From an uncultured Actinomycetes bacterium (GTDB lineage Bacteria; Actinomycetota; Thermoleophilia; Gaiellales; JAICJC01), in the NCBI GenBank assembly GCA_963825325.1, contig CAWGSU010000004.1, forward strand, positions 1,152,334 to 1,216,333: DNA of 64,000 nt, written 5' to 3'. A model generated the notes under the pieces. The model did not search any database and was not told the DNA's origin. It was given only the letters and a program-made list of their open reading frames with translations. Of the stretch, positions 931 to 53,021 are shown piece by piece (position 1 is the first letter of the stretch; each line of letters begins with the position of its first letter). Both the position numbers and the translations under genes were made by a program.

Positions 931-1044
931 CCGGCGGTTTGCCCACTCGGTGAGCCTGGTAGACATCGCGCATCGACCTCTTTGTGGCGCTCGCAACGCG
1001 GCGCCGCGAAGGAGACGTTCAGCACGCCCGAAGGAGATTGGCCC

Positions 1045-1326
1045 ATGTGCCTCGCGATTCCGGGGCAGGTGATCGAGATCGTGGACGACCGCAACCGGCT
1101 GGCGAAGGTCGAGATCGCGGGCGTGCGCCGCAACGTGAACGTGAGCCTGCTCGACGACGACGCCGGCGGCGGCGTCAAGCCGGGCGACTGGGTCCTGATC
1201 CACGTGGGCTTCGCGCTCTCCAAGGTGGATGAGGACGAAGCGCTGGCGACGCTCGCGCTGCTCGAGCAGATGGGCGCCGAGTACGAGCAGGAGCTCGAGG
1301 AGCTGAAGGCGAGCGTGATCGAGTGA
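1045..1326 (+). CDS. hypC: [NiFe]-hydrogenase maturation chaperone HypC
   Basis: The N-terminus is MCLAIPGQVIEIVDD and the protein contains PGDWVLIHVGFAL. ATG 1045 is in frame with ORF 982..1326 and is preceded by GAAGGAGA. Confidence 0.9.
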   Translation: MCLAIPGQVIEIVDDRNRLAKVEIAGVRRNVNVSLLDDDAGGGVKPGDWVLIHVGFALSKVDEDEALATLALLEQMGAEYEQELEELKASVIE

Positions 1327-1619
1327 CCGCAGGCCGGTACGCGGAGATGGCCCCCCCCAGCTCCGCCGCGCCGGCCTGCGGCCCCGACGACCACTGCATC
1401 ACCTGCGGCGATGTCGCGGTCGACCTCGCCGTCGTCCGCATCGATCCCTCCACGCGTCTCGCGTGGTGCTCGGGGGCGTCGCCGGCGGGCAGGCCGGACG
1501 CCGCCGGGGAGTGGGTGGACACCGAGCTCGTCGGCCCGGTGCGACCCGGCGACCGTGTGCTCGTCCACGCGGGCGTCGCCCTGACGCGGCTCGGCTCGCC
1601 CGCCGGCGGTGCCGCGTGA
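1323..1619 (+). CDS. HypC/HybG/HupF-family paralogue with an N-terminal extension (HCITCGD instead of N-terminal MC)
   Basis: GTG 1323 overlaps the hypC stop (GTGA). The core ..HCITCGDVAVDLAVVRID..VRPGDRVLVHAGVAL aligns with HypC (PGDWVLIHVGFAL). Confidence 0.7.
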   Translation: MTAGRYAEMAPPSSAAPACGPDDHCITCGDVAVDLAVVRIDPSTRLAWCSGASPAGRPDAAGEWVDTELVGPVRPGDRVLVHAGVALTRLGSPAGGAA

Positions 1620-2731
1620 AGTTCGTCGACGAGTTCCGCAACCCCGAGCTCGGCCGGGCCGTTGCCGGCGAGATCCTGGCGACGGTCGAGGCGGGGCGCC
1701 ACTACAAGATCATGGAGGTGTGCGGCGGGCACACCCACTCGATCTACAAGTACGGCGTGGACGACCTGCTGCCCGCGAACGTCGAGCTCGTCCACGGGCC
1801 GGGCTGCCCCGTGTGTGTGATCCCGATGGGCCGCGTCGACGACGGCATCGCGCTCGCCCACGAGCCGGACGTGATCTTCACCTGCTTCGGGGACATGCTG
1901 CGTGTGCCCGGTGCGAACGGCACGCTGATGGACGCGAAGGCCGAGGGCGCCGACGTGCGCATGGTGTACTCGCCGCTCGACGCGCTGCGCATCGCCCGCG
2001 AGAACCCCGACCGGCAGGTGGTCTTCTACGCGATCGGCTTCGAGACCACCGCGCCGTCGACCGCGCTCACGCTCAAGCGGGCCAAGGCCGAGGGCGTGAC
2101 CAACTTCTCGTGCATGTGCAACCACGTCACGATCGTGCCGCCGCTGCGGGCGCTGCTCGACTCGCCCGACCTGCGCCTGGACGGCTTCATCGGCCCGGGC
2201 CACGTCGCCACCGTCGTCGGCGGGCGCCCGTTCGAGTTCATCCCCGCCGACTACGGCCGTCCAGTGGTGATCTCCGGGTTCGAGCCGCTCGACCTGCTGC
2301 AGTCGGTGCAGATGATCCTGCGCCAGCTCGCCGACGGCCGCTGCCAGGTTGAGAACCAGTACGCGCGGGTGGTGCCGTACGAGGGCAACATGGCCGCCCT
2401 GAAGGTGATGGCCGAGGTGTTCGCGCTGCGGCCGCACTTCGAGTGGCGCGGCCTGGGCTTCATCTCGCAGAGCGCCCTGCGCCTGTCCGACGCCTACCGC
2501 GACCTCGATGCCGAGGTGCGCTACCAGGTGCCGGGCGTGCGCGTGGCCGACCCCAAGGCGTGCCAGTGCGGCGAGGTGCTGAAGGGCGTGATCAAGCCGT
2601 GGGAGTGCAAGGTGTTCGGCAGCGCCTGCACGCCCGAGCACGCGATCGGCACGTGCATGGTCTCGCCCGAGGGGGCGTGCGCCGCCTACTACAACTACGG
2701 CCGCTTCGCCCGCGACCGCGAGGTGGTGTGA
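1616..2731 (+). CDS. hypD: [NiFe]-hydrogenase maturation protein HypD
   Basis: GTG 1616 overlaps the upstream stop (GTGA). Motifs seen are VKFVDEFRNPEL, MEVCGGHTHSIYKYG, GPGCPVCV, FETTAP and the C-terminal CQCGEVL..GTCMVSPEGACAAYY. Confidence 0.95.
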   Translation: MKFVDEFRNPELGRAVAGEILATVEAGRHYKIMEVCGGHTHSIYKYGVDDLLPANVELVHGPGCPVCVIPMGRVDDGIALAHEPDVIFTCFGDMLRVPGANGTLMDAKAEGADVRMVYSPLDALRIARENPDRQVVFYAIGFETTAPSTALTLKRAKAEGVTNFSCMCNHVTIVPPLRALLDSPDLRLDGFIGPGHVATVVGGRPFEFIPADYGRPVVISGFEPLDLLQSVQMILRQLADGRCQVENQYARVVPYEGNMAALKVMAEVFALRPHFEWRGLGFISQSALRLSDAYRDLDAEVRYQVPGVRVADPKACQCGEVLKGVIKPWECKVFGSACTPEHAIGTCMVSPEGACAAYYNYGRFARDREVV

Positions 2732-2732
2732 G

Positions 2733-3827
2733 GTGCCGCGCGCGGCCGACCCCACCGACCGCGAGCAGCGGGTGCTGGACATCATCGAGACGGTGCGCTC
2801 CAAGCCGCCGAAGTTCCGCGATGCGCGCATCACCATGGCCCACGGCGCGGGCGGCAAGGCGACGCAGACGCTGATCGAGGGCCTGCTCGTGCCCGCCTAT
2901 GGGGCGGCCAGCCTCGCCGCGCTCGCCGACGCAGGCGCCGTGTCGGTCGGGGGCGTCGAGCTCGCGTTCACGACCGACAGCTTCGTCGTCAAGCCGATCC
3001 GCTTCCCCGGCGGCTCGATCGGTGAGCTGGCCGTGAACGGCACCGTGAACGACCTCGCCATGGCGGGCGCGCGGCCGCTCGCGCTGACCCTGTCCATGGT
3101 GCTCGAGGAGGGCCTCTCGGCAGACGACCTGCGCGCCGAGGTCGCGGCGATCGCCGCCGCGGCGGCCGCCGCGGGCGTCGAGATCGTCGCCGGCGACACG
3201 AAGGTCGTCGAGCGCGGGCACGCCGACTCGATGTACCTGTGCACGGCGGGGATCGGCCAGGTCGACCCGCGCGCGGCGCTCTCGCCGGCGGGCCTGCGGC
3301 CCGGCGACCGCATCCTCGTCTCGGGCTCGATCGGCGAGCACGGCACGGCGATCATGCTCGCCCGCGGCGAGTTCGACCTCGACGCCGAGGTCGAGTCCGA
3401 CACGTGCTCGCTCTGGCCGGCGGTCGACGCGCTGCTGGACGCCGCCGGCCACGACCTGCGCTGCCTGCGCGACGCCACCCGCGGCGGCGTCGCCTCGGTG
3501 CTGAACGAGCTCGCGCGCGCCTCGGGGGTGGCCATGGTCGTGCGCGAGGCGGATGTGCCGGTGCTGCCCGCGGTCGCGGGCGCGGCGGAGCTGCTCGGCA
3601 TCGACCCGATGTATGTCGCGAACGAGGGCAAGCTCGTCGCCTTCGTCGCGCCCGAGCGGTGCGAGGCGGCGCTCGCCGCGCTGCGGGCCGTGCCCGGGTG
3701 CGAGCGGGCGGTCGAGATCGGCGAGGTCAAGACCGACCCGCCGGGGATGGTGTTGGTGGAGACGGCGTTCGGCGGCAAGCGGGTCATGGACCAGCTCGTC
3801 GGCGATCCGCTGCCCAGGATCTGTTGA
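2733..3827 (+). CDS. hypE: [NiFe]-hydrogenase maturation protein HypE (carbamoyl dehydratase)
   Basis: The layout is AIR-synthase-like. Motifs seen are MAHGAGGKATQTLIE, AGDTKVVERG and the C-terminal DPLPRIC. Confidence 0.95.
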   Translation: MPRAADPTDREQRVLDIIETVRSKPPKFRDARITMAHGAGGKATQTLIEGLLVPAYGAASLAALADAGAVSVGGVELAFTTDSFVVKPIRFPGGSIGELAVNGTVNDLAMAGARPLALTLSMVLEEGLSADDLRAEVAAIAAAAAAAGVEIVAGDTKVVERGHADSMYLCTAGIGQVDPRAALSPAGLRPGDRILVSGSIGEHGTAIMLARGEFDLDAEVESDTCSLWPAVDALLDAAGHDLRCLRDATRGGVASVLNELARASGVAMVVREADVPVLPAVAGAAELLGIDPMYVANEGKLVAFVAPERCEAALAALRAVPGCERAVEIGEVKTDPPGMVLVETAFGGKRVMDQLVGDPLPRIC

Positions 3828-3855: not shown

Positions 3856-4935
3856 TTGGCCACAGTCGAGTTCGTACCGAACCAGCAGCAGACCGAAGGC
3901 ATCACTGCCCACGTCCTGTGGATGACCACGGGGCTCTCGTGCGAAGGCGACTCGGTCGCGATGACCGCGGCCACGAACCCGAGCCTCGAGGACATCATCA
4001 CCGGCGTCATCCCCGGGATGCCGCGCGTCGTCATCCACAACCAGGTGATCGCCTACGAGGTCGGCCAGGAGTACATCCAGTCCTGGTACGACGCCGAGGC
4101 GGGCAAGCTCGACCCCTTCGTGCTGATCATCGAGGGCTCGATCGGCAACGAGAACATCAACGGCGAGGGCCACTGGTCGGGGTTCGGCGTCCACCCCGAC
4201 ACCGGCCAGCCGATCACCACCAACGACTGGATCGACCGGCTCGCGAACAAGGCGGCGGCGGTCGTCGCCATCGGCACCTGCGCGACCTACGGCGGCATCC
4301 CCGCCATGAAGAACAATCCCACCGGCGCGATGGGCCTGCCCGACTACCTGGGCTGGAACTGGAAGTCGAAGGCCGGCCTGCCCGTCGTGTGTATCCCCGG
4401 CTGCCCGGCGCAGCCCGACAACATGACCGAGACCCTGCTCTACCTCGTCCTGCACCTGGGCGGCCTTGCGCCCGCGCCGGAGCTCGACGACCAGCTGCGG
4501 CCGAAGTGGCTCTTCGACCGCACGACGCACGAGAGCTGCAACCGGGCCGGCTTCTACGAGATGGGCAACTTCGCCACCGAGTACGGCTCCGACCACCGCT
4601 GCCTGGTCAAGCTGGGCTGCGAAGGCCCGATCGTGAAGTGCAACGTGCCGGTGCGCGGCTGGGTCAACGGCATCGGCGGATGTCCCAACGTCGGCGGGAT
4701 CTGCATGGCCTGCACGATGCCCGGCTTCCCCGACAAGTACCTCCCGTTCATGCAGGAGGCGCCGCGATCACGGGTGACGACGATCCCCGCCCGGCTGACC
4801 TACGGCCCGATCTACAAGTTCCTGCGCAGCTGGGAGATCCGCCACAACGGCGACACCGAGCCCACCTGGCGCCACAACCGGAACGAGCTCACGAGCGGGT
4901 ACCAGCCCCGGAACTACGCCCGGAAGGGAGCATGA
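3856..4935 (+). CDS. hhyS: [NiFe]-hydrogenase small subunit, group-1h-like (no Tat signal)
   Basis: TTG 3856 lies 5-6 nt after GAGGGAGG. There is no RRxF twin-arginine motif. The first cluster motif is SCEGD (Asp where canonical enzymes have CxGC). Other motifs are GTCATYGGIPA, IPGCPAQPD and CNVP..GGCPNVGGICMACTMPGFPD. Confidence 0.9.
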   Translation: MATVEFVPNQQQTEGITAHVLWMTTGLSCEGDSVAMTAATNPSLEDIITGVIPGMPRVVIHNQVIAYEVGQEYIQSWYDAEAGKLDPFVLIIEGSIGNENINGEGHWSGFGVHPDTGQPITTNDWIDRLANKAAAVVAIGTCATYGGIPAMKNNPTGAMGLPDYLGWNWKSKAGLPVVCIPGCPAQPDNMTETLLYLVLHLGGLAPAPELDDQLRPKWLFDRTTHESCNRAGFYEMGNFATEYGSDHRCLVKLGCEGPIVKCNVPVRGWVNGIGGCPNVGGICMACTMPGFPDKYLPFMQEAPRSRVTTIPARLTYGPIYKFLRSWEIRHNGDTEPTWRHNRNELTSGYQPRNYARKGA

Positions 4936-4936
4936 C

Positions 4937-6715
4937 GTGACAACGGTCGAGACTCCGCAGGAGCGGAAGGTCATCGTCAAGGAGATGTCGTGGGATCCGA
5001 TCACGCGCATCGTGGGCAGCCTGGGCATCCACACCGAGATCGACTTCACGAACCAGCAGGTGCTCAAGTGCTACTCGACGTCGATGGTGTTCCGCGGGTT
5101 CGACATCTTCATGAAGGGCATCGATCCGCGTGACGCCCACTTCATCACGAGCCGGATCTGCGGCATCTGCGGCGACAACCACTGCACCTGCTCGTGCCTG
5201 AACCAGAACATGGCCTACGGTGTGAAGCCGCCCAAGCTCGGCGACTACGCCTACAACCTGGCCGAGTCGGCCGACTTCATGTTCGACCACGCGATCTTCA
5301 ACGACTGCATGGCCAACGTGGACTTCTGCGAGCAGATGGTCAAGGAGACGAACCCGACCCTGCTGCGCAAGGCCGAGTCGACCCCGTCCCCGCACGGCGA
5401 CATCCACGGCTACAAGACGATCGCCGACATCATGCGGGCGCTCAACCCGTTCACCGGCAGCTTCTATCTCGAGACCCTCCAGGTCGCCCGCTACACGCGC
5501 GAGATGTACTGCCTCTTCGGCGGCCGCCACACGCACCCGTCGACCATCATGCCGGGCGGCGTCTCGGCGGACATCACCCACCAGACGTGCACCGACTACT
5601 ACGTGCGGCTCATGCGCTACATCGAGTACGCCAAGCGCACCGTGCCCATGCACGACGACCTGTACGACTTCTTCCTGCAGGAGCTGCCTGGGTACGACAT
5701 GGTCGGCTACCGCGACACCGACCTGATCTGCTGGGGGTGCTTCGACGATCCCGACTACGTCGACTACAGCTACCGCGGCATGACCGAGTGGGGCCGGCAT
5801 CGCTACATCACGCCCGGCCTGGTCTTCAAGGGCGAGCTGGTGTCGACCGACCTGGTCGAGATCAACCTCGCCATCCGGATCCTGCTCGGGAGCTCCTACT
5901 TCGACGACTGGTCGAGCGAGGAGACGTTCGTGCATACCGATCCGCTCGGGAACCCGGTCGACAAGCGCCACCCGTGGAACAAGGTGACGCTGCCCAAGCC
6001 GCAGAAGCGCGACTGGACGGACAAGTACAGCTGGGTGGTCTCGCCGCGGATGTACGACGCCCGCAACGACACCTACGTCGCCTGCGACACCGGCGGCGGC
6101 CCGTTCGCCCGCCAATGGGTGACGGCGAAGGCCGGCCTGGTCGACATCGGCTACCTGAAGGCCACCGGTCACAGCCTGCAGATGGTGCTCCCGAAGACCG
6201 CCAGCATGCCGGAGATGGAGCTCGAGTGGAAGATCCCGGAGAAGTCGAACGCGATCGAGCGTGACCGGGCCCGCTCCTACCACCAGGCCTACTCGGCCCT
6301 CGTCGGGCTGCACTGCCTCGAGAAGGCCCTGGGCGAGATCCGGGCCGGGCGCACGAAGAGCTGGAACAACTTCAAGGTGCCCCAGGAGGCTGTGAGCGTC
6401 GGCTTCCACGAGGCCGCGCGCGGAGTGCTCTCGCACCACATGGTGATCCGGGGCGGCAAGATCGCGAACTACCAGCCGTACCCGCCGACGCCGTGGAACG
6501 CGAACCCGCGCGACGTCTACGGGACGCCGGGCCCGTACGAGGACGCCGTCCAGAACACCCCCATCTTCGAGGAGAACGGCCCCGAGGACTTCAAGGGAGT
6601 CGACATCATGCGGGCGGTGCGCTCGTTCGACCCGTGCCTGCCGTGTGGCGTGCACATGTACACGGGGGCCGGACGGGTGCGCAAGGTGGAGCATCGCCCG
6701 ACCGGACTCTGCTGA
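4937..6715 (+). CDS. hhyL: [NiFe]-hydrogenase large subunit, group-1h-like
   Basis: The N-terminal Ni-binding motif is SRICGICGDNHCTCS. The C-terminal motif is SFDPCLPCGVHMY, followed by a 17-aa tail that would be removed by the endopeptidase. GTG 4937 lies 1 nt after the small-subunit stop. Confidence 0.95.
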   Translation: MTTVETPQERKVIVKEMSWDPITRIVGSLGIHTEIDFTNQQVLKCYSTSMVFRGFDIFMKGIDPRDAHFITSRICGICGDNHCTCSCLNQNMAYGVKPPKLGDYAYNLAESADFMFDHAIFNDCMANVDFCEQMVKETNPTLLRKAESTPSPHGDIHGYKTIADIMRALNPFTGSFYLETLQVARYTREMYCLFGGRHTHPSTIMPGGVSADITHQTCTDYYVRLMRYIEYAKRTVPMHDDLYDFFLQELPGYDMVGYRDTDLICWGCFDDPDYVDYSYRGMTEWGRHRYITPGLVFKGELVSTDLVEINLAIRILLGSSYFDDWSSEETFVHTDPLGNPVDKRHPWNKVTLPKPQKRDWTDKYSWVVSPRMYDARNDTYVACDTGGGPFARQWVTAKAGLVDIGYLKATGHSLQMVLPKTASMPEMELEWKIPEKSNAIERDRARSYHQAYSALVGLHCLEKALGEIRAGRTKSWNNFKVPQEAVSVGFHEAARGVLSHHMVIRGGKIANYQPYPPTPWNANPRDVYGTPGPYEDAVQNTPIFEENGPEDFKGVDIMRAVRSFDPCLPCGVHMYTGAGRVRKVEHRPTGLC

Positions 6716-6725
6716 GAGGAGCGGC

Positions 6726-7568
6726 ATGAACGACCCGATGGAGCGGGTCTCCGAGCTCACCGCGGCCCTCGAAGCGCTCGAGGACGGGGATGCCCGCAGG
6801 CTGGCCGAGGAGCTCGTCGGGGCGGTGGTCGACCTCTACGGAGAGGGCCTCGCTCGCATCATGGACGTGCTCGCCGACGATTCCCTGGCCGCCGGCGAGC
6901 TGCGGGGACGGTTGGCGGCCGACGGCCTGGTCGCCAGCCTCCTGCTCGTGCACGACCTCTATCCGGTGCCGCTCGAGGAGCGCGTGCTCGCGGCGCTTGC
7001 CTCGGTGCGTCCCTACATGGAGTCGCACGGCGGCGACGTCGAGCTGCTTGGGATCGACGCGGGGGTGGCGCGGCTGCGCCTGGTCGGCCACTGCCATGGC
7101 TGCCCGGCGTCGATGCAGACGCTCGAGCTCGCAATCACCGACGCGCTCGAGGAGCGGGCGCCCGACCTGCTGGGCGTCGAGGTCGAGGGCCTGGCCGAGC
7201 CCGCGCAGCCGGCCGGCGGCGGCATGACCGCGATCCGGGGCCGGCTGGCGGCGCCCACCTGGCTCCCGGTCGAGGCGGCGGGCGACGTCGCCCCCGGCGC
7301 GGTCGCGACGGTGACGCTGCGCGGTGCCGAGATGGTGGTCGCAAACGTCGCGGGCACCCTGCTCGCCTACCGCAGCGAGTGCCCGTGCTGCGGCAGCGGC
7401 CTTGCCGACGCGACCCTCGAGGGCGAGATCCTCGCCTGTGACAAGTGTCACCACGGGTACGTGCTCACCGAGGCCGGCCGGGCCGTCGGCTCCGACGACG
7501 TCCATCTCGATCCGGTGCCGCTGCTTCGGCGTGACGGCGTCGGGGTCGCCGTGGCGGTCGCCACGTGA
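6726..7568 (+). CDS. Hydrogenase-associated NifU-like / Cys-rich Rieske-like two-domain protein (HhyE/HucE-like)
   Basis: The NifU C-terminal-type motif is VRPYMESHGGDVELLGI..RLVGHCHGCPASMQTL. The C-terminal domain carries ECPCCG-x15-CDKCHHGY. ATG 6726 is in frame with ORF 6645..7568. Confidence 0.75.
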   Translation: MNDPMERVSELTAALEALEDGDARRLAEELVGAVVDLYGEGLARIMDVLADDSLAAGELRGRLAADGLVASLLLVHDLYPVPLEERVLAALASVRPYMESHGGDVELLGIDAGVARLRLVGHCHGCPASMQTLELAITDALEERAPDLLGVEVEGLAEPAQPAGGGMTAIRGRLAAPTWLPVEAAGDVAPGAVATVTLRGAEMVVANVAGTLLAYRSECPCCGSGLADATLEGEILACDKCHHGYVLTEAGRAVGSDDVHLDPVPLLRRDGVGVAVAVAT

Positions 7569-8212
7569 GCGCGGGCGTCCCTCCCTCTGCGCCCAACCCC
7601 GAGGTGGTCACGAGCCTGCGCCGGCTGGCGCGGTCGCGTACGGCGGCTGCGCCGCCGGCGGCCGCTCCGGCCGGCGCGCGCTGCGACCTGTGCGGCACGA
7701 CGATCGACGAGGAGCACCGCCACCTGCTCCAGCTCGCCGAGCACCGCATCCTGTGCGCGTGCGAGCCGTGCTTCGCCATGCGGGCGGGCGATCCCGATCT
7801 GCGCCCGACGGGGACGCGGGTGGCGGTGCTGAACGGCTTCGACCTCCCCGACGAGCTCTGGGCCGCGTTCCAGATCCCGATCGGCCTCGCGTTCTTCTTC
7901 CGCACCGCCGACGGCGTCGTGGCGTTCTATCCCAGCCCGGCCGGAGCGACCGAGTCGGAGCTCTACCTCGAGGCGTGGGACGACCTGGTGGCCAGAAACG
8001 CCGCGCTCGCCGGCCTCGAGCAGGAGGTCGAGGCGCTGATCGTCGACCGCTTGAGCGAGCCGCGCAACTACGCGATCGTCCCCATCGACCGCTGCTACGA
8101 GCTCGTCGGCGCGATCAAGGCGAGCTGGCAGGGCATCTCGGGCGGGAGCGCGGTCGAGGATGCGGTGGCCGCGTTCTTCGCCGCGTTGCACGGGCGCCGG
8201 AGCGTCGCGTGA
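7565..8212 (+). CDS. Uncharacterised hydrogenase-cluster protein with CxxC..CxCxxC motif (recalls DUF5947, from memory)
   Basis: The start has a 4-nt overlap (GTGA) with the upstream gene. The Cys motif is ARCDLCGTTIDEEHRHLL..ILCACEPCF. It is on the same strand, and the codon bias matches its neighbours. Confidence 0.7.
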   Translation: MSAGVPPSAPNPEVVTSLRRLARSRTAAAPPAAAPAGARCDLCGTTIDEEHRHLLQLAEHRILCACEPCFAMRAGDPDLRPTGTRVAVLNGFDLPDELWAAFQIPIGLAFFFRTADGVVAFYPSPAGATESELYLEAWDDLVARNAALAGLEQEVEALIVDRLSEPRNYAIVPIDRCYELVGAIKASWQGISGGSAVEDAVAAFFAALHGRRSVA

Positions 8213-8868
8213 GCGCGGTCCCGGCGCTCGAGTTCACGGTGCTCGGGGCGTCGTGCGTCGAGGACGCCGCCGCGCCGACCCTGCGCGTCGACCTCGGCGT
8301 GAGCGAGAGCGCCGGCCTCGAGGTGTTCACGATCGCGCTCACCGCCCAGATCAACATCGACCCGTCGCGGCGCAGCTACGACCCCGAGACGCGCACGCGC
8401 CTGATCGAGCTCTTCGGCGAGCCGGAGCGATGGTCTCAGACGACGCACAGCTTCCTGTGGGCCTACTCGAGCGCGCTCGTGCCGAGCTTCACCGGCACGA
8501 CCACCTTCTCGCTCCCGATCGCGTGCACGTACGACCTCGAGGTGGCGGCGACCAAGTACTTCGCCGGTCTGCCCGGCGGGCACGTCCCGCTCACGTTCCA
8601 CTTCAACGGCTCGATCCTGCACCGGGCTCCGGGCGGCGACATCCAGGTGGTCGCGATCCCGTGGTCGTGCTCCGCCCGCTGGCGGATGCCGGTCGAGACG
8701 TGGCGGGGGATGATGGACCGCCACTACCCGAACTCGAGCTGGGTGCGGCTGCACCCTGACACGACCGACTCGCTGCGCAGGTACACCGCCGAGGCGGGCC
8801 TGTTCTCGATGGATGCCGCGATCGTGCGGCTGCTCGAGTCGGCGACGTCGCCCGAGGCCGGCGCATGA
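8209..8868 (+). CDS. Uncharacterised hydrogenase-cluster protein (recalls DUF6084, from memory)
   Basis: GTG 8209 overlaps the upstream stop (GTGA) and is in frame with ORF 7324..8868. The sequence reads VSAVPALEFTVLGASCVEDAAAPTL..IALTAQINIDPSRRSYD. Confidence 0.7.
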   Translation: MSAVPALEFTVLGASCVEDAAAPTLRVDLGVSESAGLEVFTIALTAQINIDPSRRSYDPETRTRLIELFGEPERWSQTTHSFLWAYSSALVPSFTGTTTFSLPIACTYDLEVAATKYFAGLPGGHVPLTFHFNGSILHRAPGGDIQVVAIPWSCSARWRMPVETWRGMMDRHYPNSSWVRLHPDTTDSLRRYTAEAGLFSMDAAIVRLLESATSPEAGA

Positions 8869-9746
8869 GCGCCGACGCGGCACTCGAGTCGCTGCTCGAC
8901 GCGCTCCTCTACGAGGGCTACGCGCTCTATCCATACACCGGGACAGCGGCCAAGAACGCGACCCCGACGCCCTTCGGGATCGTCTACCCGCCCGCCTATG
9001 CCCACGCCGCCCCGGCCGCGTTCGACATGCTGCGCATGCACGGCGTGGTGCAGGGCAACGGCGACGCCTCGGTGGCGGCCGAGGTGCGGCTGCTGCAGGC
9101 CGCGCCGGAGGGCGGGCACCGGGCGCTCGAGCGGCGGCTGCCCGCGCTTGCGGGGACGCTTGCCGGCCTGGCCGAGAGCTCCCACGTCGAGACGTTCGGC
9201 CTGAACGGCATCTCGGGCCGGGTGCGGCTCTCGGTGCGACCGCTGCATCCCGACGTCTGGCGGATCGCGCTCTGCGTGCACAACACGACGTCGGTGCCGC
9301 CCGGCGTTGATCGCACCACCGCACTGCGCTCGAGCCTGCTCTCGACCCACCCGGTGGTGCGGGTGGGCGGCGCGCGCTTCGCGTCGCCGCTCGAGCGGAC
9401 GGGCGTGCTCGGCCATGCCGTGTCCGGCTGCGGGAGCATCAACACCTATCCCGTGCTCGCGGGGGAGGCCGACGACGTGCTCGTCGGGGCGACGATCATG
9501 CTCCCCGACCACCCGCAGCTCGCGCCCGAGAGCCGTGGCAACCTGTTCGACGGCACCGAGATCGAGGAGGCGCTGCTCCTGCATGTGATGGCGCTCTCCG
9601 ACGACGAGCGCGATCAGGTGACGGGCGGCGACCCGGCGCTGCGCGAGATGGTCGAGCGGGCGGCGGCGGCGACGCCGGAGGACCTGCTGCGGCTGCACGG
9701 CCGCACCGTGCTGTCCGACCCCGCGCCGGAGGGGGGACGGTCATGA
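8865..9746 (+). CDS. Uncharacterised hydrogenase-cluster protein (293 aa)
   Basis: It overlaps both neighbours by ATGA. It begins MSADAALESLLDALLYEGYALYPYT. I recognise no motif. Confidence 0.7.
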   Translation: MSADAALESLLDALLYEGYALYPYTGTAAKNATPTPFGIVYPPAYAHAAPAAFDMLRMHGVVQGNGDASVAAEVRLLQAAPEGGHRALERRLPALAGTLAGLAESSHVETFGLNGISGRVRLSVRPLHPDVWRIALCVHNTTSVPPGVDRTTALRSSLLSTHPVVRVGGARFASPLERTGVLGHAVSGCGSINTYPVLAGEADDVLVGATIMLPDHPQLAPESRGNLFDGTEIEEALLLHVMALSDDERDQVTGGDPALREMVERAAAATPEDLLRLHGRTVLSDPAPEGGRS

Positions 9747-10039
9747 TGGAGGGGTTCGGCGCGCGCGGCGAGCCGCCGGTCGGCGAGGAGCAGGCCGTGG
9801 TCGACGGCGTCACCTACCGCCGGGGCGACAAGGTGCGCCTGCGGCTGACCGAGCGCACCGACCCGTACGACCGCATCCTCGACGGCAGGGTGGCGACGCT
9901 CGAGCGGATCTACTACGACTACGAGGACAAGCTCTACTTCGGTGCGACGATCGACGACGACCCGGGGCAGGACCTGATGCGCGAGACCGGCCGGTTCCTG
10001 TTCTTCTTCGCAGGCGAACTGGAGGCATACCCGACGTGA
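9743..10039 (+). CDS. Uncharacterised small hydrogenase-cluster protein (98 aa)
   Basis: It has an ATGA overlap upstream and a GTGA overlap downstream. The sequence includes ..DGRVATLERIYYDYEDKLYFGATIDDDPG. Confidence 0.65.
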   Translation: MMEGFGARGEPPVGEEQAVVDGVTYRRGDKVRLRLTERTDPYDRILDGRVATLERIYYDYEDKLYFGATIDDDPGQDLMRETGRFLFFFAGELEAYPT

Positions 10040-10558: not shown

Positions 10559-10921
10559 ATGCACGAGCTGTCCGTCGCGAGTGCCGTCGTCGACACCGCC
10601 ACCCGCCACGCCGAGGGCCGCCGCGTGACGGCGGTGCAGCTGCGCGTCGGACACCTGCGCCAGGTCGTGCCCGACTCGCTCGCGTTCTACTTCGACCACG
10701 TCGCCGTCGGCACGCTCTGCGAAGGCGCCCGGCTGGAGCAGCAGATCGTGCCGGCGCGCCTCGTGTGCGAGGCCTGCAAGCACGAGTGGGAGCTCGGCGA
10801 GGCGATGTTCCGCTGCCCCCGCTGCGACGCCACGCGGGTGCAGATCACGGCCGGCAACGAGCTCTGTGTCGAGTCGATCGAAGTCGAGGAGCGGGAGGCC
10901 GCATGCATCGCACCAAGGTGA
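10559..10921 (+). CDS. hypA: Nickel-inserting maturation protein HypA
   Basis: The N-terminus has the MHE motif. The zinc site is CEACKHEW..CPRCD. ATG 10559 is in frame with ORF 10418..10921. Confidence 0.9.
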   Translation: MHELSVASAVVDTATRHAEGRRVTAVQLRVGHLRQVVPDSLAFYFDHVAVGTLCEGARLEQQIVPARLVCEACKHEWELGEAMFRCPRCDATRVQITAGNELCVESIEVEEREAACIAPR

Positions 10922-11580
10922 GGGTGCTCGAGGACGTGCTCGACGCGAACGCGACGATCGCACGCGCGAACAGGGACGACTTCGACCGCGCGGGGGTGCG
11001 CGTCGTCAACATGATGAGCTCGCCCGGCGCCGGCAAGACGACGCTGCTCGAGCGCACGCTGGCCGACCTCGCCGGCGTGCGCGTCGGCGTGCTCGAGGGC
11101 GACGTCGCCGGCACGCTCGACGCCGACCGCATCGCGGGCATCCACGTCCCGGTGACGCAGATCAACACCGAGGCCGGCTTCGGCGGCGAGTGCCATCTCG
11201 ACGCGAACATGGTGCGCTCGGCGATCCCGGCGCTGCCGCTGGGCGAGATCGACCTGCTCGTGATCGAGAACGTCGGCAACCTCGTGTGCCCGGCCGAGTT
11301 CCGGGTCGGCGAGGACGTGCGCGTGATGGTCGCGTCGGTCGCCGAGGGCGAGGACAAGCCGCTCAAGTACCCGCTCATGTTCCGCACGTGCGAGCTCGTG
11401 CTCGTGAACAAGATCGACCTGCTGCCGTACGTCGACTTCGACATGGACCGGTTCAACTACCACCTGGACGCGGTCCACCCAGGCGTGCCGCGCCTGCTGA
11501 TGAGCGCGCGCACCGGCGACGGGGTGGATGCGTGGCGCGAGTGGCTGCGCGAGTTCGCGCTCGAGCGCCAGCCGGCGTGA
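10903..11580 (+). CDS. hypB: Nickel-dependent GTPase HypB
   Basis: The protein reads MHRTKVRVLEDVL.. with the SPGAGKTT P-loop, ENVGNLVCPAEF and NKIDLL. It overlaps hypA by 19 nt. I saw no N-terminal CxxCGC motif or His stretch. Confidence 0.9.
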   Translation: MHRTKVRVLEDVLDANATIARANRDDFDRAGVRVVNMMSSPGAGKTTLLERTLADLAGVRVGVLEGDVAGTLDADRIAGIHVPVTQINTEAGFGGECHLDANMVRSAIPALPLGEIDLLVIENVGNLVCPAEFRVGEDVRVMVASVAEGEDKPLKYPLMFRTCELVLVNKIDLLPYVDFDMDRFNYHLDAVHPGVPRLLMSARTGDGVDAWREWLREFALERQPA

Positions 11581-12779
11581 CCGAGACGCGGGCGGCCGAT
11601 CGCGCCCGGCGGGCGCTCGACGACCTGATCGAGCGCCGCGCGGGCGCCGACGCCGCCTTCTTCGCGCAGCACGCCGCCGCGATCGCGAGCCTGTGCCACG
11701 CCATGGCCGAGCGCTTCGCCCGCGGTGGCCGCCTGATCGCCGTCGGCACCTCGCCGCAGGATCGCAGCGACGTGCGCCACGTCGCGGTCGAGTTCGTCCA
11801 TCCCGTGATCGTCGGCAAGCGCGCGCTCCCGGCCGTCGGCCTCGACCCGGCCGCGGGGTCGCTCGCGGGCCAGGTCGGCCTGCTGGCCGAGGCCGACGAC
11901 ATCGTGATCGGCTTCGGCGCCGACGCGGGCGTGGCGGCGGCGATCGCCGTCGCGCGCACGCGCGGCTGCCTGACGGTCGCGTTCGCCCCCGTCGGTGCCG
12001 AGTGGGAGGCGGTGCCTCCGGGCGCGGACACCGCGGTCGACCAGGAGCTCACAGAGACGCTCTACCACCTGCTGTGGGAGCTCGTGCACGTGTTCTTCGA
12101 GCACCGCGGCCTGCTGGCGGGCAGGAGCGCCGGGCCGGTGCACGACTCGGGCGCCTCGGCGTTCCTGTATCCGTTCCTGTCCGAGGGCGAGCACGACCTG
12201 GACGCGGTGCTCGCAGACGTGCGCCGGTCGGTGCTGATGAAGGCCGACGAGGTCGCCGCCCTGCGCGAGCGCACGCTGCGCGAGGGCGCAGACGCGATCG
12301 TCGCGGCCGCGGCCGCGCTGCGGGCCGTCCTCGACGACGGCGGCACCGTGCTCGCGTTCGGAAACGGCGGCTCGGCCACCGACGCGATGGATCTCGTCGC
12401 CGACCTGCGCGCCGGCCTGCGGCCGCGGCGCGCGCTCGACCTGACCGAGGACTCGGGCATCCTGACCGCGCTTGCGAACGACATCGGCCCCGACGTGCTG
12501 TTCGCCCGCCAGGTGATCGCCTACGGCCGGCCGGGCGACGCCGCGGTGGCACTCTCGACGAGCGGCGGCTCCGAGAACATCATCGCCGGCCTGGCCGAGG
12601 CCCGTCGGCGCGGCCTCGTGACGGTGGCGCTGGTCGGCTACGACGGCGGCCGCATCGCCGCCGAGCGCCTGGCCGACCACGTCGTCGTGACGCCGTCGCA
12701 GCACATCCCCCGCATCCAGGAGGCGCAGGCGAGCGCCTACCACGCGCTGCGCGAGCTGATCGAGCTCGCGGGCGGATAG
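11577..12779 (+). CDS. Tandem SIS-domain protein (GmhA/phosphoheptose-isomerase-like), last gene of the hydrogenase locus
   Basis: GTG 11577 overlaps the hypB stop. The C-terminal half reads GGTVLAFGNGGSATDAMDL..ALSTSGGSENI..VALVGYDGG. The N-terminal half is a degenerate SIS copy (GGRLIAVGTSPQDRSD). Confidence 0.8.
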   Translation: MTETRAADRARRALDDLIERRAGADAAFFAQHAAAIASLCHAMAERFARGGRLIAVGTSPQDRSDVRHVAVEFVHPVIVGKRALPAVGLDPAAGSLAGQVGLLAEADDIVIGFGADAGVAAAIAVARTRGCLTVAFAPVGAEWEAVPPGADTAVDQELTETLYHLLWELVHVFFEHRGLLAGRSAGPVHDSGASAFLYPFLSEGEHDLDAVLADVRRSVLMKADEVAALRERTLREGADAIVAAAAALRAVLDDGGTVLAFGNGGSATDAMDLVADLRAGLRPRRALDLTEDSGILTALANDIGPDVLFARQVIAYGRPGDAAVALSTSGGSENIIAGLAEARRRGLVTVALVGYDGGRIAAERLADHVVVTPSQHIPRIQEAQASAYHALRELIELAGG

Positions 12780-12785
12780 GCGCGC

Positions 12786-14003
12786 TCAGACCTCGGCCGC
12801 CAACGTGTCGGGGTCGGCGGCCACAGCGGCGAGGGGGTCGCCGCGCAGCCGCAGCCCGAGCATCGGGTAGACGAGCGTCGAGAGCACCGCCGCGCCGATG
12901 AGGGCGGCGGCGGTCGACGCCCGCATGTGGCCGGTCCTCGTTGCGAGCGTCGTGATCGCGAGGACGAGCGGCAGCTGCGTCGATGACATCAGCGCCAGTG
13001 CGGCCCGTTCACGGGCATCGAGCACCCCCCGGTAGAGCACGAGCGCCGGCGTCCCGCGCACCACGAGGAACAGGAAGAAGAACACCACCATCTTGACGAT
13101 GCCGGAGGGGCTGGAGACGAGCGCGGGCAGGTCCAGGCTCATCCCGCTCGCCACGAAGAAGAACGGCACGAACACGCCGAACGCCACCGCCGTCAGCTTG
13201 GAGTCGAAGGCGGGCAGCTCGCGCGTCTTCAGCACCTGGCGGGTGATCATGCCGGCCGCGAACCCGCCCAAGAGGAGGTCGAGACCGAGCTTGAACGCCA
13301 GGAAGGCGAGCGCGAACACGAGCGCGACGATCCAGCGCACGGCGAGCTGGGAGCTGCTCTCGAGGGTCCGCTCGAACAGCGGAAACGTGCGTGCCGACGA
13401 CCGCACGGCGAAGACGGCGACGCTCACGGCGAGCGCGACGAACGCGATCAGGATGAGGGCGTTGTGCTCGGTGCCCTGGCTGGACAGGAGCAGTGTGAGC
13501 AGAAGGATCGGCCCGAACTCGCCGACGGCGCCCGCGGCCAGCATGTAGGTACCGAAACGGGTGCGCAGCTCGCCGGCGTCGGAGAGGATCGGGATCAGCA
13601 TCCCGATCGCCGTCGTCGCGAGCGCCGATCCGGTGTAGAGCAGCGAGAGCACGACCCCGAACGCGGCCAGCACGCCCCCGATGGTGTAGGCGAGCGCGAG
13701 CGAGAGCCCCCAGCCGAGCAGGCCGAGCCGAAGCGGCGCGCCCCTGATCCGCTGGATGTCGATCTCGTAGCCCGCGAAGAAGAAGAGCAGGCCGAGGCCG
13801 AGGTCGGCGAAGAACGTGACGAACTGGTCGACCTTCAGGCCGAATCCGTGCGGCCCGATGATCACGCCGATCACGAGCTCGATGACGACCACCGGGATGA
13901 GAACGCCGCGCCCGCCTGCCACCGCCGCCAGGCTGCCGGCCAGCGCCGAGGCGGCGACGATGGCGAGAAACGTCGCCGGGTCGACGTGGATCAGGTAGAG
14001 CAT
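12786..14003 (-). CDS. Cation:proton antiporter (Na+/H+ exchanger family)
   Basis: The protein is polytopic, reading MLYLIHVDPATFLAIVAAS..GVIIGPHGFGL..FFFAGYEID. Its ATG overlaps the Fur-like stop (TGATG). The 49-aa N-terminal extension in the track is Arg-rich shadow. Confidence 0.85.
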   Translation of the reverse strand: MLYLIHVDPATFLAIVAASALAGSLAAVAGGRGVLIPVVVIELVIGVIIGPHGFGLKVDQFVTFFADLGLGLLFFFAGYEIDIQRIRGAPLRLGLLGWGLSLALAYTIGGVLAAFGVVLSLLYTGSALATTAIGMLIPILSDAGELRTRFGTYMLAAGAVGEFGPILLLTLLLSSQGTEHNALILIAFVALAVSVAVFAVRSSARTFPLFERTLESSSQLAVRWIVALVFALAFLAFKLGLDLLLGGFAAGMITRQVLKTRELPAFDSKLTAVAFGVFVPFFFVASGMSLDLPALVSSPSGIVKMVVFFFLFLVVRGTPALVLYRGVLDARERAALALMSSTQLPLVLAITTLATRTGHMRASTAAALIGAAVLSTLVYPMLGLRLRGDPLAAVAADPDTLAAEV

Positions 14004-14458
14004 CACGCGCGGCCTTCGGCGTCCGCGCACGCGGCGCACAGCCCGACGATCGGGAAGTGGGTGAAGCGGGCCTGGACGCCGAACCGCTCGTGGATCAGGT
14101 CGCGCACCGGGTCGAGCTCCTCCGGCGCGATGGCGCGCACGGCGCCGCACCCCTCGCAGTAGACGTACTCGCGCTCGCCGGGCACGACCAGGGCGTGCAG
14201 CCCGGGCCCGTGGCCGAGGTGCACGTGGCGCACGACGCCGTGGGCTTCGAGCGTCTCCAGGTTGCGGTACACCGACGCGGTGTCGAGACCGAGGCCGGTG
14301 GCGAGCTGTTCGGCCGATACCGGCCCATCGGCCGCGAACAGCGCCTCGAGCACGAGCCGCCGCGGCGTGGAGATGCGCAGGCCGCGCTCGCGCAACGCCG
14401 CCAGAGCCTCGTCCAGGCCGGCGAACGCGAGCGTCGGGACGCGCGGAGCCTCGGTCAT
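14003..14458 (-). CDS. Fur-family metalloregulator (possibly nickel-responsive, Nur-like)
   Basis: The winged helix reads PRRLVLEALF..SAEQLA..SVYRNLETLEAHGVV. It also has HVHLGHGPGLHA and the CEGCG..CAAC zinc site. Confidence 0.85.
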   Translation of the reverse strand: MTEAPRVPTLAFAGLDEALAALRERGLRISTPRRLVLEALFAADGPVSAEQLATGLGLDTASVYRNLETLEAHGVVRHVHLGHGPGLHALVVPGEREYVYCEGCGAVRAIAPEELDPVRDLIHERFGVQARFTHFPIVGLCAACADAEGRA

Positions 14459-14471
14459 CTCCGCGGAGAGA

Positions 14472-15476
14472 CTATCCCGGCGTGTCGGCTCCGGCGCTCC
14501 AGCGCTCCTCGATACGGCCGAAGTGCCACACCGCGAGCGACACCGCCCATGTGACGACGAACATGCCGACGATCACGAAGCCGACGGCGCTCATGTCGGG
14601 ACCTCCGCCCGCGAAGATCCCGGCGAGCTCGATCGTCCCGACCCCCAGCGCGACCAGGGCCGAGAGCCCGGTGATGGTGATGTTGTAGTAGACCTTGCGC
14701 ACGGGCTGCGAGAACGCCCACCCGTAGGCGAAGTTCATGAACGAGCCGTCGATCGTGTCGAGCAGCGACATGCCGGCGGCGAACAGGATCGGCAGGCACA
14801 GGATCGCGTAGAACGGCAGGCCCGCACCCGCGGCGCCGGCGGCCAGGAAGAGCAGCGCCACCTCGCTGGCCGTATCGAACCCGATGCCGAAGAGCAGGCC
14901 GAGCGGGTACATCTGCCACGGGTGCCGGATCGCGCGGGTGAAGCGGCCGTAGATGCGGTTCAGGAACCCGCGTGTGTTCAGCCGGTGCTCGAGGTCGGCC
15001 TGGTCGTAGCTGCCGCGGCGCATGTCGCGGAAGACTCCGACGATCCCGACCAGAATGATCAGGTTCAGGATTCCGATCACGTACAGGAACGTCCCCGACA
15101 CGCCGGTGCCGACGAGGCCGGTGATGTGATGCAGTCGCGACTCCGGGTTCGTCACGGGGCCGCCCAGCGCGCGCACGCCGATGGCGAACAGGAACGCCAG
15201 CGCGAACACGACCGACGAGTGCCCGAGCGAGAAGAAGAACCCGACGCTCATGGGCCGCTTGCCCTCGGACATGAGCTTGCGCGTGGTGTTGTCGATGGCC
15301 GCGATGTGGTCGGCGTCGAACGCGTGCCGCAGGCCGAGCGTGTAGGCGGTGAGGCCGATCCCGATCGTGAAGGCGCCCGAGTCGCCGAGGCGGTAGTGGT
15401 GAGGCGCGATGACGGCGATCAGCAGGAAGAAGCCGACCACGTGCAGCCCGCCCACGACGATCGCCATCGCCGCCAC
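14472..15476 (-). CDS. NiCoT (HoxN/HupN/NixA) nickel/cobalt permease
   Basis: The signature LRHAFDADHIAAIDNTTRKL is followed by FFFSLGHSSVV. About 8 TM segments are visible. Confidence 0.9.
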   Translation of the reverse strand: MAAMAIVVGGLHVVGFFLLIAVIAPHHYRLGDSGAFTIGIGLTAYTLGLRHAFDADHIAAIDNTTRKLMSEGKRPMSVGFFFSLGHSSVVFALAFLFAIGVRALGGPVTNPESRLHHITGLVGTGVSGTFLYVIGILNLIILVGIVGVFRDMRRGSYDQADLEHRLNTRGFLNRIYGRFTRAIRHPWQMYPLGLLFGIGFDTASEVALLFLAAGAAGAGLPFYAILCLPILFAAGMSLLDTIDGSFMNFAYGWAFSQPVRKVYYNITITGLSALVALGVGTIELAGIFAGGGPDMSAVGFVIVGMFVVTWAVSLAVWHFGRIEERWSAGADTPG

Positions 15477-27454: not shown

Positions 27455-27481
27455 GCGCAGGTGTGGCGGGCTCTTGTTGAA

Positions 27482-27570
27482 CGGAGGGGGAGGGATTCGA
27501 ACCCTCGGTACGCCTAACGACGCACAACGGTTTTCGAGACCGCCGCATTCAACCACTCTGCCACCCCTCC
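27482..27570 (-). tRNA. tRNA-Ser (anticodon CGA)
   Basis: The reverse complement folds as a class II cloverleaf. The acceptor is GGAGGGG/CCCCTCC, the D arm is GCA..TGC, and the anticodon loop is CTCGAAA. It has a long variable arm and the T arm GAGGGTTCGAATCCCTC. CCA is not encoded. Confidence 0.9.
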
Positions 27571-27610
27571 GGGAGGCCGCGCCATTCTACTCGGATACGC
27601 TTCCCGGCCC

Positions 27611-52920: not shown

Positions 52921-52931
52921 AGTCTCATTAG

Positions 52932-53021
52932 CGGAGAGGGAGGGATTCGAACCCTCGCTGGAGGTTTACCCCCCAGACCCACTTAGCAGGCGGGCGCCTT
53001 CAGCCACTCGGCCACCTCTCC
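52932..53021 (-). tRNA. tRNA-Ser (anticodon GCT)
   Basis: The reverse complement has the acceptor GGAGAGG/CCTCTCC and the D arm GCC..GGC. The anticodon loop is CTGCTAA. It has a long variable arm and the T arm GAGGGTTCGAATCCCTC. Confidence 0.9.

Follow-up and report, generated by a model that had tools for sequence, protein, structure and literature searches.

A large share of the soil sink for atmospheric H2 is attributed to group 1h [NiFe]-hydrogenases (Hhy, formerly group 5), and the genes that accompany their structural genes have for more than a decade been standing candidates for assembly of the enzyme in air, for its sticking to the membrane and for acceptance of its electrons. This accessory block, "hhyE + three conserved hypothetical proteins", has already been reported as specific to group 1h/5 hydrogenases. 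HhyE was described by Islam, Cordero and Greening in 2019 as a protein, encoded beside group 1h hydrogenases, that has a NifU-like CxxC domain and, at its C-terminus, two further CxxC motifs; in Mycobacterium smegmatis its gene (MSMEG_2718) was deleted and complemented and is required for H2 uptake (PMC6883350). DUF5947 (PHG067/MSMEG_2717) was earlier proposed as an electron acceptor, and a 2026 paper still lists the block proteins as hypothetical, with the anchoring subunit not identified. Here we describe such a block in a window of 64 kb, the whole stretch of DNA analysed (64,000 nucleotides of contig CAWGSU010000004.1), from an uncultured Gaiellales-like actinobacterium. Five overlapping genes, P1 to P5, lie there between the large-subunit gene hhyL and the protease gene hupD, and they are the group 1h-specific accessory block of Hhy: HhyE (P1), DUF5947 (P2), DUF6084 (P3) and a fourth protein that is encoded by two genes (P4 and P5). 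The locus is a new instance of a known, named locus type. An earlier note on this DNA, made from the sequence alone, had taken the five genes for an undescribed module; this does not hold, since HhyE dates from 2019, P2 and P3 belong to named Pfam families and DUF5947 is already a proposed acceptor.

The closest described counterpart is the "actinobacterial-type" locus on the pHG1 megaplasmid of Cupriavidus necator H16, in which four genes, in the order seen in the window and mostly with 4-nt overlaps, lie between hofG and the protease gene. P1 to P5 are 33%, 44%, 37%, 29% and 44% identical to the C. necator orthologues, respectively. The C. necator DUF5947 protein keeps all eight Cys/His residues that are invariant in P2, while its NifU-like protein is a short one without a cysteine motif, and P4-P5 is one protein of 476 amino acids (aa) with insertions. 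The DUF5947 protein of pHG1 is PHG067, and the other three proteins would be PHG066, PHG068 and PHG069. The C. necator enzyme is reported to be soluble and of low affinity (PMC7174314). The equivalent block of M. smegmatis consists of MSMEG_2717 and downstream genes, and its HhyE corresponds to P1 in lying directly after hhyL and in having both the NifU-like CxxC domain and the C-terminal pair of CxxC motifs. With the orthologue of Mycobacterium intracellulare, P1 shares 41-42% identity.

A group 1h hydrogenase locus with overlapping accessory genes

The window has a G+C content of ~72% and encodes a complete group 1h [NiFe]-hydrogenase locus on its + strand, in the order hypC-hypD-hypE-hhyS-hhyL-P1-P2-P3-P4-P5-hupD-hypA-hypB-SIS gene (Table 1). 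The hhyL product contains the L1 TSRICGICGDNH and L2 SFDPCLPCGVH signatures, in line with the motifs given for group 1h large subunits in PMC5364354, and its closest solved relative is HofG, the group 1h enzyme of C. necator (5aa5_C, E 1.5e-277; next best 2.1e-44). In agreement with the earlier note, which had described a Tat-less hydrogenase without membrane anchor or cytochrome b partner, a twin-arginine motif was not found in the N-terminal translation of HhyS, and Pfam scans of the neighbouring genes found no cytochrome b or other membrane subunit in the locus. By its signatures, its closest enzyme, the lack of a Tat motif and cytochrome b, and the hhyE block with hupD, the locus belongs to group 1h.

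Profile searches against Pfam and NCBIfam, a check that the earlier note had proposed for the five proteins, gave families for three of them. P1 matches NifU (E 9.8e-18, 64.5 bits against a cut-off of 27) and, marginally, Rieske (E 5.8e-5, 23.4 bits against a cut-off of 20.3), P2 matches DUF5947 (PF19372; 197.5 bits, cut-off 25) over profile positions 1-176 of 177, and P3 matches DUF6084 (PF19562; 247.3 bits, cut-off 25) over positions 2-210 of 213. P4 and P5 match no model of either database at E up to 10, and nothing useful came from Pfam scans at relaxed thresholds with P4, P5, fused orthologues or the Cys-rich part of P2. Characterised maturation factors (HypA-F, HyaE/HoxO, HyaF/HoxQ/HupH, HybE/HoxT, HoxR, HoxV/HupK) were likewise not matched by P2 to P5 in Pfam or NCBIfam at E up to 10. 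The supposition that the five proteins lack homology to known maturation factors thus stands for P2 to P5 and fails for P1, which is clearly homologous to the NifU/Nfu Fe-S scaffold domain. In profile searches of the Protein Data Bank (PDB), P2 to P5 have no sequence relatives and P1 is related only to generic NifU and Rieske domains, and profile-profile comparisons detect no homology between P2, P3 and P4.

The five genes between hhyL and hupD are real and strongly conserved, as the earlier note had assumed, and the 4-nt overlaps that it had listed are all present (GTGA at 7565, GTGA at 8209, ATGA at 8865, ATGA at 9743 and, between P5 and hupD, GTGA at 10036). High-G+C DNA yields many spurious open reading frames (ORFs) on both strands, and at 72% G+C one could read the five as chance ORFs or mis-called genes with accidental overlaps. 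However, homologues number in the hundreds to thousands for each product, P2 and P3 match their Pfam models at 197 and 247 bits, the gene order is conserved across phyla, and the six products P1 to P5 and HupD are identical in the output of an independent gene caller (ENA ERZ25039562, contig_16848). The conservation data therefore already refute this reading, and we put its probability at practically nil.

Conservation, synteny and natural fusions

In a pattern scan with each species represented by one genome, 560 P4 loci were confirmed, of which the best 80, all from Thermoleophilia, were kept; the evidence for cross-phylum synteny comes from four plasmid loci and the literature. In tblastn searches of these best 80 of 560 loci with all locus proteins, the order from hypC to the SIS gene was identical wherever the contig was long enough, and P3 was present in 80/80, P2 and P5 in 78/80 each, and hhyL in 75/80. 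The same block order (small subunit, large subunit, NifU-like protein, DUF5947, DUF6084, fused P4-P5, protease) is also found in four distant replicons, namely the C. necator H16 megaplasmid, a plasmid of Mycobacterium intracellulare, a plasmid of Methylocystis parvus and a Streptomyces replicon. Synteny with group 1h large subunits, on which the earlier note had made its hypothesis depend, thus holds across phyla. Among 72,556 plasmids, 13 have a 1h-type large subunit (61-68% identity to HhyL), and homologues of P2 and P4 occur on the identical 13, with P3 detectable on 11 of them.

The 4-nt overlaps are also widespread. By a strict in-frame NTGA test on the related loci, the overlap is kept at P1-P2 in 57/79, at P2-P3 in 69/82, at P3-P4 in 29/83 and at P5-hupD in 61/82, and such overlaps are kept in the Cupriavidus, Mycobacterium and Streptomyces annotations as well. 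The median identity is 49-57% for P1 to P5, 54% for HypA, 72% for HhyS and 85% for HhyL. The overlaps had been taken in the earlier note as a sign of stoichiometric complex subunits, but the identical chain runs on into the protease gene hupD, and translational coupling is therefore no proof of stoichiometric structural subunits. Natural fusions between neighbours do fit products that act as one physical unit.

HhyE and DUF5947 form a single ORF of ~460 aa in two genomes, the complete one of the isolate Paraconexibacter antarcticus 02-257 (NZ_CP098502.1; L025:7933-9321) and a related metagenome-assembled genome (MAG; L072:8118-9500). This fusion lacks the disordered N-terminal ~38 residues of DUF5947 and is therefore no simple frameshift artefact. 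When 1.84 billion representatives were searched with a DUF6084 profile, 1691 clusters at 50% identity were obtained, and the best 150 of these include DUF5947-DUF6084 fusions (e.g. P0427, 401 aa), DUF6084-P4 fusions and DUF6084-P4-P5 fusions such as P0492, a protein of 765 aa that is 33-37% identical to the window proteins. Fusion counts from long-read assemblies were weighed cautiously on account of indels at the 4-nt overlaps. Apparent P3-P4 fusions in four long-read MAG loci (e.g. L018:9930-10050 and L061:9930-10050) were not counted and are likely 1-nt indel artefacts, because they are sited where a 1-nt indel in a G-run abolishes the usual NTGA overlap. Fusions link the chain P1-P2-P3-P4-P5 at every junction, which suggests that the neighbours form one physical module.

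Candidate metal sites of DUF5947 and HhyE

The R-C-D-L-C-G ... L-C-A-C-E-P-C-F motif that the earlier note had pointed out in P2 is present at residues 39-44 and 63-70. It belongs to a set of eight residues, C40, C43, H51, H53, C64, C66, C69 and C177, that are invariant across Thermoleophilia, Cupriavidus and Mycobacterium. In the AlphaFold2 model of P2 (predicted local distance difference test, pLDDT, 83; pTM 0.74), the CxxCG lies in a knuckle, the H-x-H and C64/C66 lie on a beta-hairpin, and C69 begins a helix. Judged by secondary structure only, the modelled site is reminiscent of a treble-clef or rubredoxin-like site. A Foldseek comparison of the model with solved structures gave no fold match (best E 0.098, TM <0.2), and P2 matches no rubredoxin or ferredoxin family in Pfam, although the CDLCG...CEPC knuckles are present.

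P1 consists of an N-terminal helical region, an Nfu/NifU-like domain with C123/C126, and a Rieske-fold domain with C219/C222 and C238/C241; the closest PDB relatives of its conserved domain are Nfu proteins. Among 71 long forms of the protein, C123/C126 are kept in 70, C219/C222 in all 71 and C238/C241 in 68. P1 lacks the Rieske CxH...CxxH ligand signature, in that the position of its first His is variable (C221 in P1; G, A or S in other proteins), C241 stands at that of the second, and H242 is not conserved. By contrast, the paralogue HucE (MSMEG_2268) has a true Rieske CxH...CxxC signature, where P1 has Cys at those positions. The Streptomyces orthologue of P1 is short and has a CGC but no C-terminal domain. 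The short NifU-like proteins of C. necator (L081:7091-7666) and Methylocystis parvus (L083:5745-6266) lack both the Nfu CxxC and the C-terminal Cys4 domain.

These candidate metal sites bear on the possibility that a soluble P1-P5 complex binds HhyS at its distal cluster and serves 1h enzymes as their physiological electron acceptor or adaptor. In such a complex, redox-active Fe centres would be present in P2 and in the long forms of P1, P5 would be the docking domain, and the electrons would pass onward to menaquinone or a membrane protein. The invariant eight Cys/His of P2 and the CxxC pairs in the long forms of P1 are consistent with this proposal, which we consider plausible, if less likely than not. 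The P1 Cys ligands are lost in Cupriavidus and Methylocystis, and P2 matches neither of the two carrier families named above. Since the Nfu CxxC is missing in the Cupriavidus and Methylocystis orthologues, P1 is not a universal electron carrier. Moreover, HhyE is short or Cys-poor in Cupriavidus, Methylocystis and Streptomyces while the DUF5947 ligands are invariant, and DUF5947, not HhyE, is therefore the universal candidate for metal binding. A more specific version of the proposal takes the block as a soluble cytoplasmic redox adaptor, in which DUF5947 would be a metalloprotein of new fold, with rubredoxin-like Cys4 knuckles and a second site of the His2Cys2 type, that takes the electrons of the HhyS distal cluster, and P5 would dock to the enzyme or to a respiratory component. 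Taken as one joint claim, this is unlikely.

DUF6084 and the fourth protein

An alignment of P3 with the Cupriavidus and Mycobacterium orthologues shows no conserved Cys or His. P4 has more than 3478 homologues, all unnamed, many of which are ~365 aa long with C-termini that align to P5. In 76/82 related loci P4 and P5 are a single ORF, and a fused P4-P5 protein of 360-476 aa is found in these 76 loci and in Cupriavidus, Mycobacterium, Methylocystis and Streptomyces. The five proteins of the earlier note are thus really four, P4 and P5 being one protein in most lineages. The split of P4 and P5, with its 4-nt overlap, is confined to the window lineage and a few relatives (L001, L002, L003, L015, L056 and L075).

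The AlphaFold2 model of a fused homologue, P0032, has a pLDDT of 79 and comprises a confidently predicted beta-sandwich core, a helical region and, at the C-terminus, an SH3-like barrel, the barrel domain being modelled at a pLDDT of ~90. The two most conserved stretches of P4, EGYxLYPY..KN and I.L.D.P..A..S....D.TEI.E, are modelled at pLDDT <50, and these low-confidence conserved loops suggest that they may fold in a partner-dependent manner. The Foldseek top match to the whole P0032 model, DrmA of the DISARM defence system (7s9w_A; E 1.3e-5, 312 columns), is statistically strong, with poor geometry (TMq 0.30); this local similarity was not interpreted.

The P5 domain superposes on PetP (7r0w_V, 2n5u), a peripheral subunit of SH3-like fold in cyanobacterial cytochrome b6f, with a TMt of 0.75, a root-mean-square deviation of 2.7 A and 27% identity over 73 columns in Foldseek. 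This shared SH3-like fold with a subunit of an electron-transfer complex would fit a redox-partner role of the block. However, the P5 profile finds no relative among PDB sequences, which places the similarity at the level of the fold alone, and SH3-like barrels are very common; no function can therefore be transferred from PetP to P5.

We also noticed look-alike motifs in P2 (residues 118-130, VAFYPSPAGATE), P3 (residues 89-98, ALVPSFTGTT) and P4 (residues 19-33, YALYPYTGTAAKNAT), each of which is conserved. Their shared appearance (..YPSPAGAT.. / ..VPSFTGTT.. / ..YPYTPGAT..) is not significant by profile comparison and may reflect chance or a shared binding element.

Assembly, scaffolding or electron transfer

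P1 to P5 are soluble, acidic (pI 4.4-5.3) cytoplasmic proteins made together with HupD. A hydrophobic segment was not found in any of them, with 19-residue Kyte-Doolittle maxima of 1.39 for P1, 1.34 for P2, 1.08 for P3, 1.10 for P4 and 0.31 for P5; therefore none of the five is the missing membrane anchor. The earlier note had singled them out as candidates for electron transfer, scaffolding or O2 protection. Their strict synteny with 1h enzymes speaks for such candidates, the published experiments discussed below lean towards assembly and not electron transfer, and a membrane-anchor role is excluded.

It has to be considered whether the proteins stay on HhyS/HhyL and organise its oligomeric state or membrane association without electron transfer. 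Hhy is membrane-associated without a predicted anchor and is not released by 5% cholate, P3, P4 and P5 lack conserved redox ligands and resemble protein-binding domains, and the loss of a scaffold could explain the lost activity band of the hhyE deletion. The model for such a role is HucM of the Huc hydrogenase (PMC10017518), a small operon-encoded non-catalytic subunit that acts as scaffold and menaquinone conduit and explains the anchor-free membrane association of that enzyme. HucM is an amphipathic coiled-coil tube encoded upstream of hucS, whereas the window has nothing between hypE and hhyS, and P1 to P5 have neither a hydrophobic segment comparable to HucM nor an obviously amphipathic membrane-binding segment. 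Furthermore, the solved structures, 5aa5 included, contain no relative of P2 to P5, and of P1 none beyond the generic NifU/Rieske domains; the Hyd-1h of Methylacidiphilum fumariolicum SolV is membrane-associated without P1 to P5; and such a role would not account for the invariant metal ligands of P2. A purely structural scaffold or tether is accordingly very unlikely in our estimation.

We tentatively prefer, at slightly less than even confidence, the reading that the block is a soluble multi-protein module that produces or stabilises active HhyS/HhyL in air and is unlikely to consist of permanent electron-carrying subunits. The mode of action that we infer for it is as follows. P1, with its Nfu-type scaffold domain and, in long forms, its Cys4 Rieske-fold domain, and P2 would handle a metal or an Fe-S centre, P2 offering the sole universally conserved candidate set of metal ligands (the rubredoxin-like CxxCG...CxPC knuckles together with H-x-H, C64 and C177). 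P3 and P4-P5, with their predicted beta-rich domains, SH3-like barrel and hyper-conserved loops that appear unstructured alone, would be protein-binding adaptors that retain the immature subunits until their clusters have been inserted and cleavage by HupD is complete.

In M. smegmatis, deletion of hhyE removes Hhy activity even in nitroblue tetrazolium zymograms, in which the artificial acceptor does not compensate for the loss, and the authors note that an assembly or scaffold role is possible (PMC6883350). Deletion of hucE, the hhyE paralogue, abolishes Huc activity (PMC6883350). Purified Huc, on the other hand, consists of HucS, HucL and HucM only and reduces menaquinone directly (PMC10017518). 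As hucE is needed and yet HucE is not in purified Huc, HucE would act before or outside the mature complex. The failure of the artificial acceptor and the absence of HucE from purified Huc, which reduces menaquinone itself, speak against a redox-partner role of the block, and so does the crystal 5aa5, the only solved group 1h structure, which has no chain related to P2 to P5, nor to P1 beyond the generic domains. The published experiments thus lean towards assembly over an electron relay.

Three features of the genes also appear to favour an assembly module. The conserved core of P1 is, by homology, an Fe-S scaffold or carrier domain whose cysteines seem dispensable in some lineages, and the pace of divergence of P1 to P5 resembles that of HypA and not that of the catalytic subunits. 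In addition, the chain of overlaps continues into hupD, followed by hypA and hypB.

Functional analogues of such a module are operon-encoded, isoenzyme-specific factors for the assembly of metal centres in air, such as HoxR together with HoxO/Q/T/V or HyaE/HyaF/HybE. All of these are accessory proteins of O2-tolerant membrane-bound hydrogenases. The CxxCG...CxPC knuckles of P2 are reminiscent of rubredoxin and in this respect of the rubredoxin-type HoxR, a rubredoxin-related maturation factor according to work cited in PMC6883350. The likeness is limited, in that HoxR/HoxO-type genes follow the protease gene, whereas the P1-P5 genes precede it, P2 to P5 match none of these families at E up to 10, and P2 has no fold match in the PDB.

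Several points weigh against an assembly module. In the canonical [NiFe]-hydrogenase operons hoxKGZM, hyaABCD and hybOABCD, the slot between the large-subunit gene and the protease gene, which P1 to P5 occupy here, holds electron-transfer subunits (a cytochrome b or HybA), and the specific maturation genes come after the protease gene. The Pfam and NCBIfam searches relate P2 to P5 to no known maturation factor. HhyE is reported, in work cited in PMC6883350, to co-migrate with HhyS/HhyL on native gels. The 1h enzyme of M. fumariolicum SolV is active, membrane-associated and of high affinity although the genome has no homologues of the block genes (PMC7174314); its hhyS-hhyL-hupD genes are adjacent (PMC5364354). 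Likewise, ~9.5% of the species surveyed in PMC6883350 lack HhyE/HucE. The module is therefore no universal requirement for maturation. The SolV operon has two membrane proteins instead, and these look more like stand-ins for a coupling partner than for an assembly factor.

The gene slot, the co-migration of HhyE and the two operon-encoded membrane proteins of SolV count in favour of a redox partner of the enzyme. So do the strict co-occurrence of the block with 1h enzymes, the earlier proposal of DUF5947 as acceptor, the fact that no other acceptor is encoded in the locus, and the fusions and translational coupling, which suggest a complex. However, P1 to P5 contain no segment resembling a quinone site, and nitroblue tetrazolium could not replace HhyE; the assembly module remains the reading to which we incline.

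Neighbouring genes and other features of the window

Just downstream of the hydrogenase locus, on the opposite strand, lie genes for a Fur-family regulator and a high-affinity nickel transporter of the NicO type, probably a dedicated nickel supply for the hydrogenase; in C. necator, a HoxN-type transporter is found at the position equivalent to that of NicO. A divergent gene for a Na+/H+ exchanger is also nearby. The SIS/GmhA-like (phosphoheptose-isomerase-like) gene that follows hypB occurs in 75/80 related loci and also in the C. necator and Methylocystis 1h loci. The window protein is of double length (~400 aa), and SIS models match its C-terminal half only.

The group 1h small subunit is named "hydrogenase expression protein HypE" by RefSeq in 4/4 annotated records (L081:4187-5242, L082:3885-4940, L083:2852-3931 and L084:3107-4195), a systematic mis-annotation. 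Two tRNA-Ser genes (anticodons CGA and GCT) lie on the - strand at 27481-27571 and 52931-53021, and there was no other Rfam or ARAGORN match in the window.

Table 1 Genes of the hydrogenase locus and its surroundings, with coordinates in the window
Feature	Coordinates	Strand	Basis and remarks
hypC (HupF/HypC chaperone)	982..1326	+	Pfam HupF_HypC E 8.6e-26; real start probably further inside the ORF
hypD	1463..2731	+	Pfam HypD E 6.6e-153
hypE	2733..3827	+	Pfam AIRS, AIRS_C
hhyS, group 1h small subunit	~3865..4935 (start approximate)	+	Pfam Oxidored_q6, NiFe_hyd_SSU_C
hhyL, group 1h large subunit	4937..6715	+	L1/L2 signatures; HofG closest solved relative
P1 = hhyE, 280 aa	6726..7568	+	ATG start, GAGGAG upstream; Pfam NifU, Rieske
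P2 = DUF5947 protein, 215 aa (PHG067/MSMEG_2717 family)	7565..8212	+	Pfam DUF5947
P3 = DUF6084 protein, 219 aa	8209..8868	+	Pfam DUF6084
P4, 293 aa, N-terminal part of the third conserved hypothetical protein of 1h loci	8865..9746	+	No Pfam model
P5, 98 aa, C-terminal SH3-like beta-barrel domain of the P4 protein, here a separate gene	9743..10039	+	Alignment to C-termini of fused homologues
hupD, large-subunit maturation endopeptidase, 171 aa	10036..10551	+	Pfam HycI 4.2e-20; TIGR00072 5.3e-36
hypA	10559..10921	+	Pfam HypA E 2.1e-31
hypB	10903..11580	+	Pfam cobW/HypB/UreG
SIS/GmhA-like protein	11580..12779	+	Pfam SIS_2 4.7e-20
Fur-family regulator	14003..14458	-	Pfam FUR 8e-9
NicO nickel transporter	14472..15476	-	Pfam NicO 1.4e-89

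Implications

The rediscovery of the block is not news in itself, and while the question of its function matters, the finding of this locus does not advance it. What may be new is modest, namely the split of P4 and P5 in this lineage, the HhyE-DUF5947 fusion of Paraconexibacter and the lack of a solved structural relative of DUF5947; the contrast between DUF5947, with its invariant ligand set, and HhyE, which has lost its cysteines in proteobacterial orthologues, may also be new. For experiments on group 1h hydrogenases, the comparison offers some guidance. The set is really one of four proteins linked by natural fusions, and none of them can be the membrane anchor. DUF5947, not HhyE, is the universally conserved candidate for the metal-binding component, and the third hypothetical protein has two domains, with its most conserved loops probably forming an interface. 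The natural HhyE-DUF5947 fusion would be a convenient construct for the biochemistry of the block.

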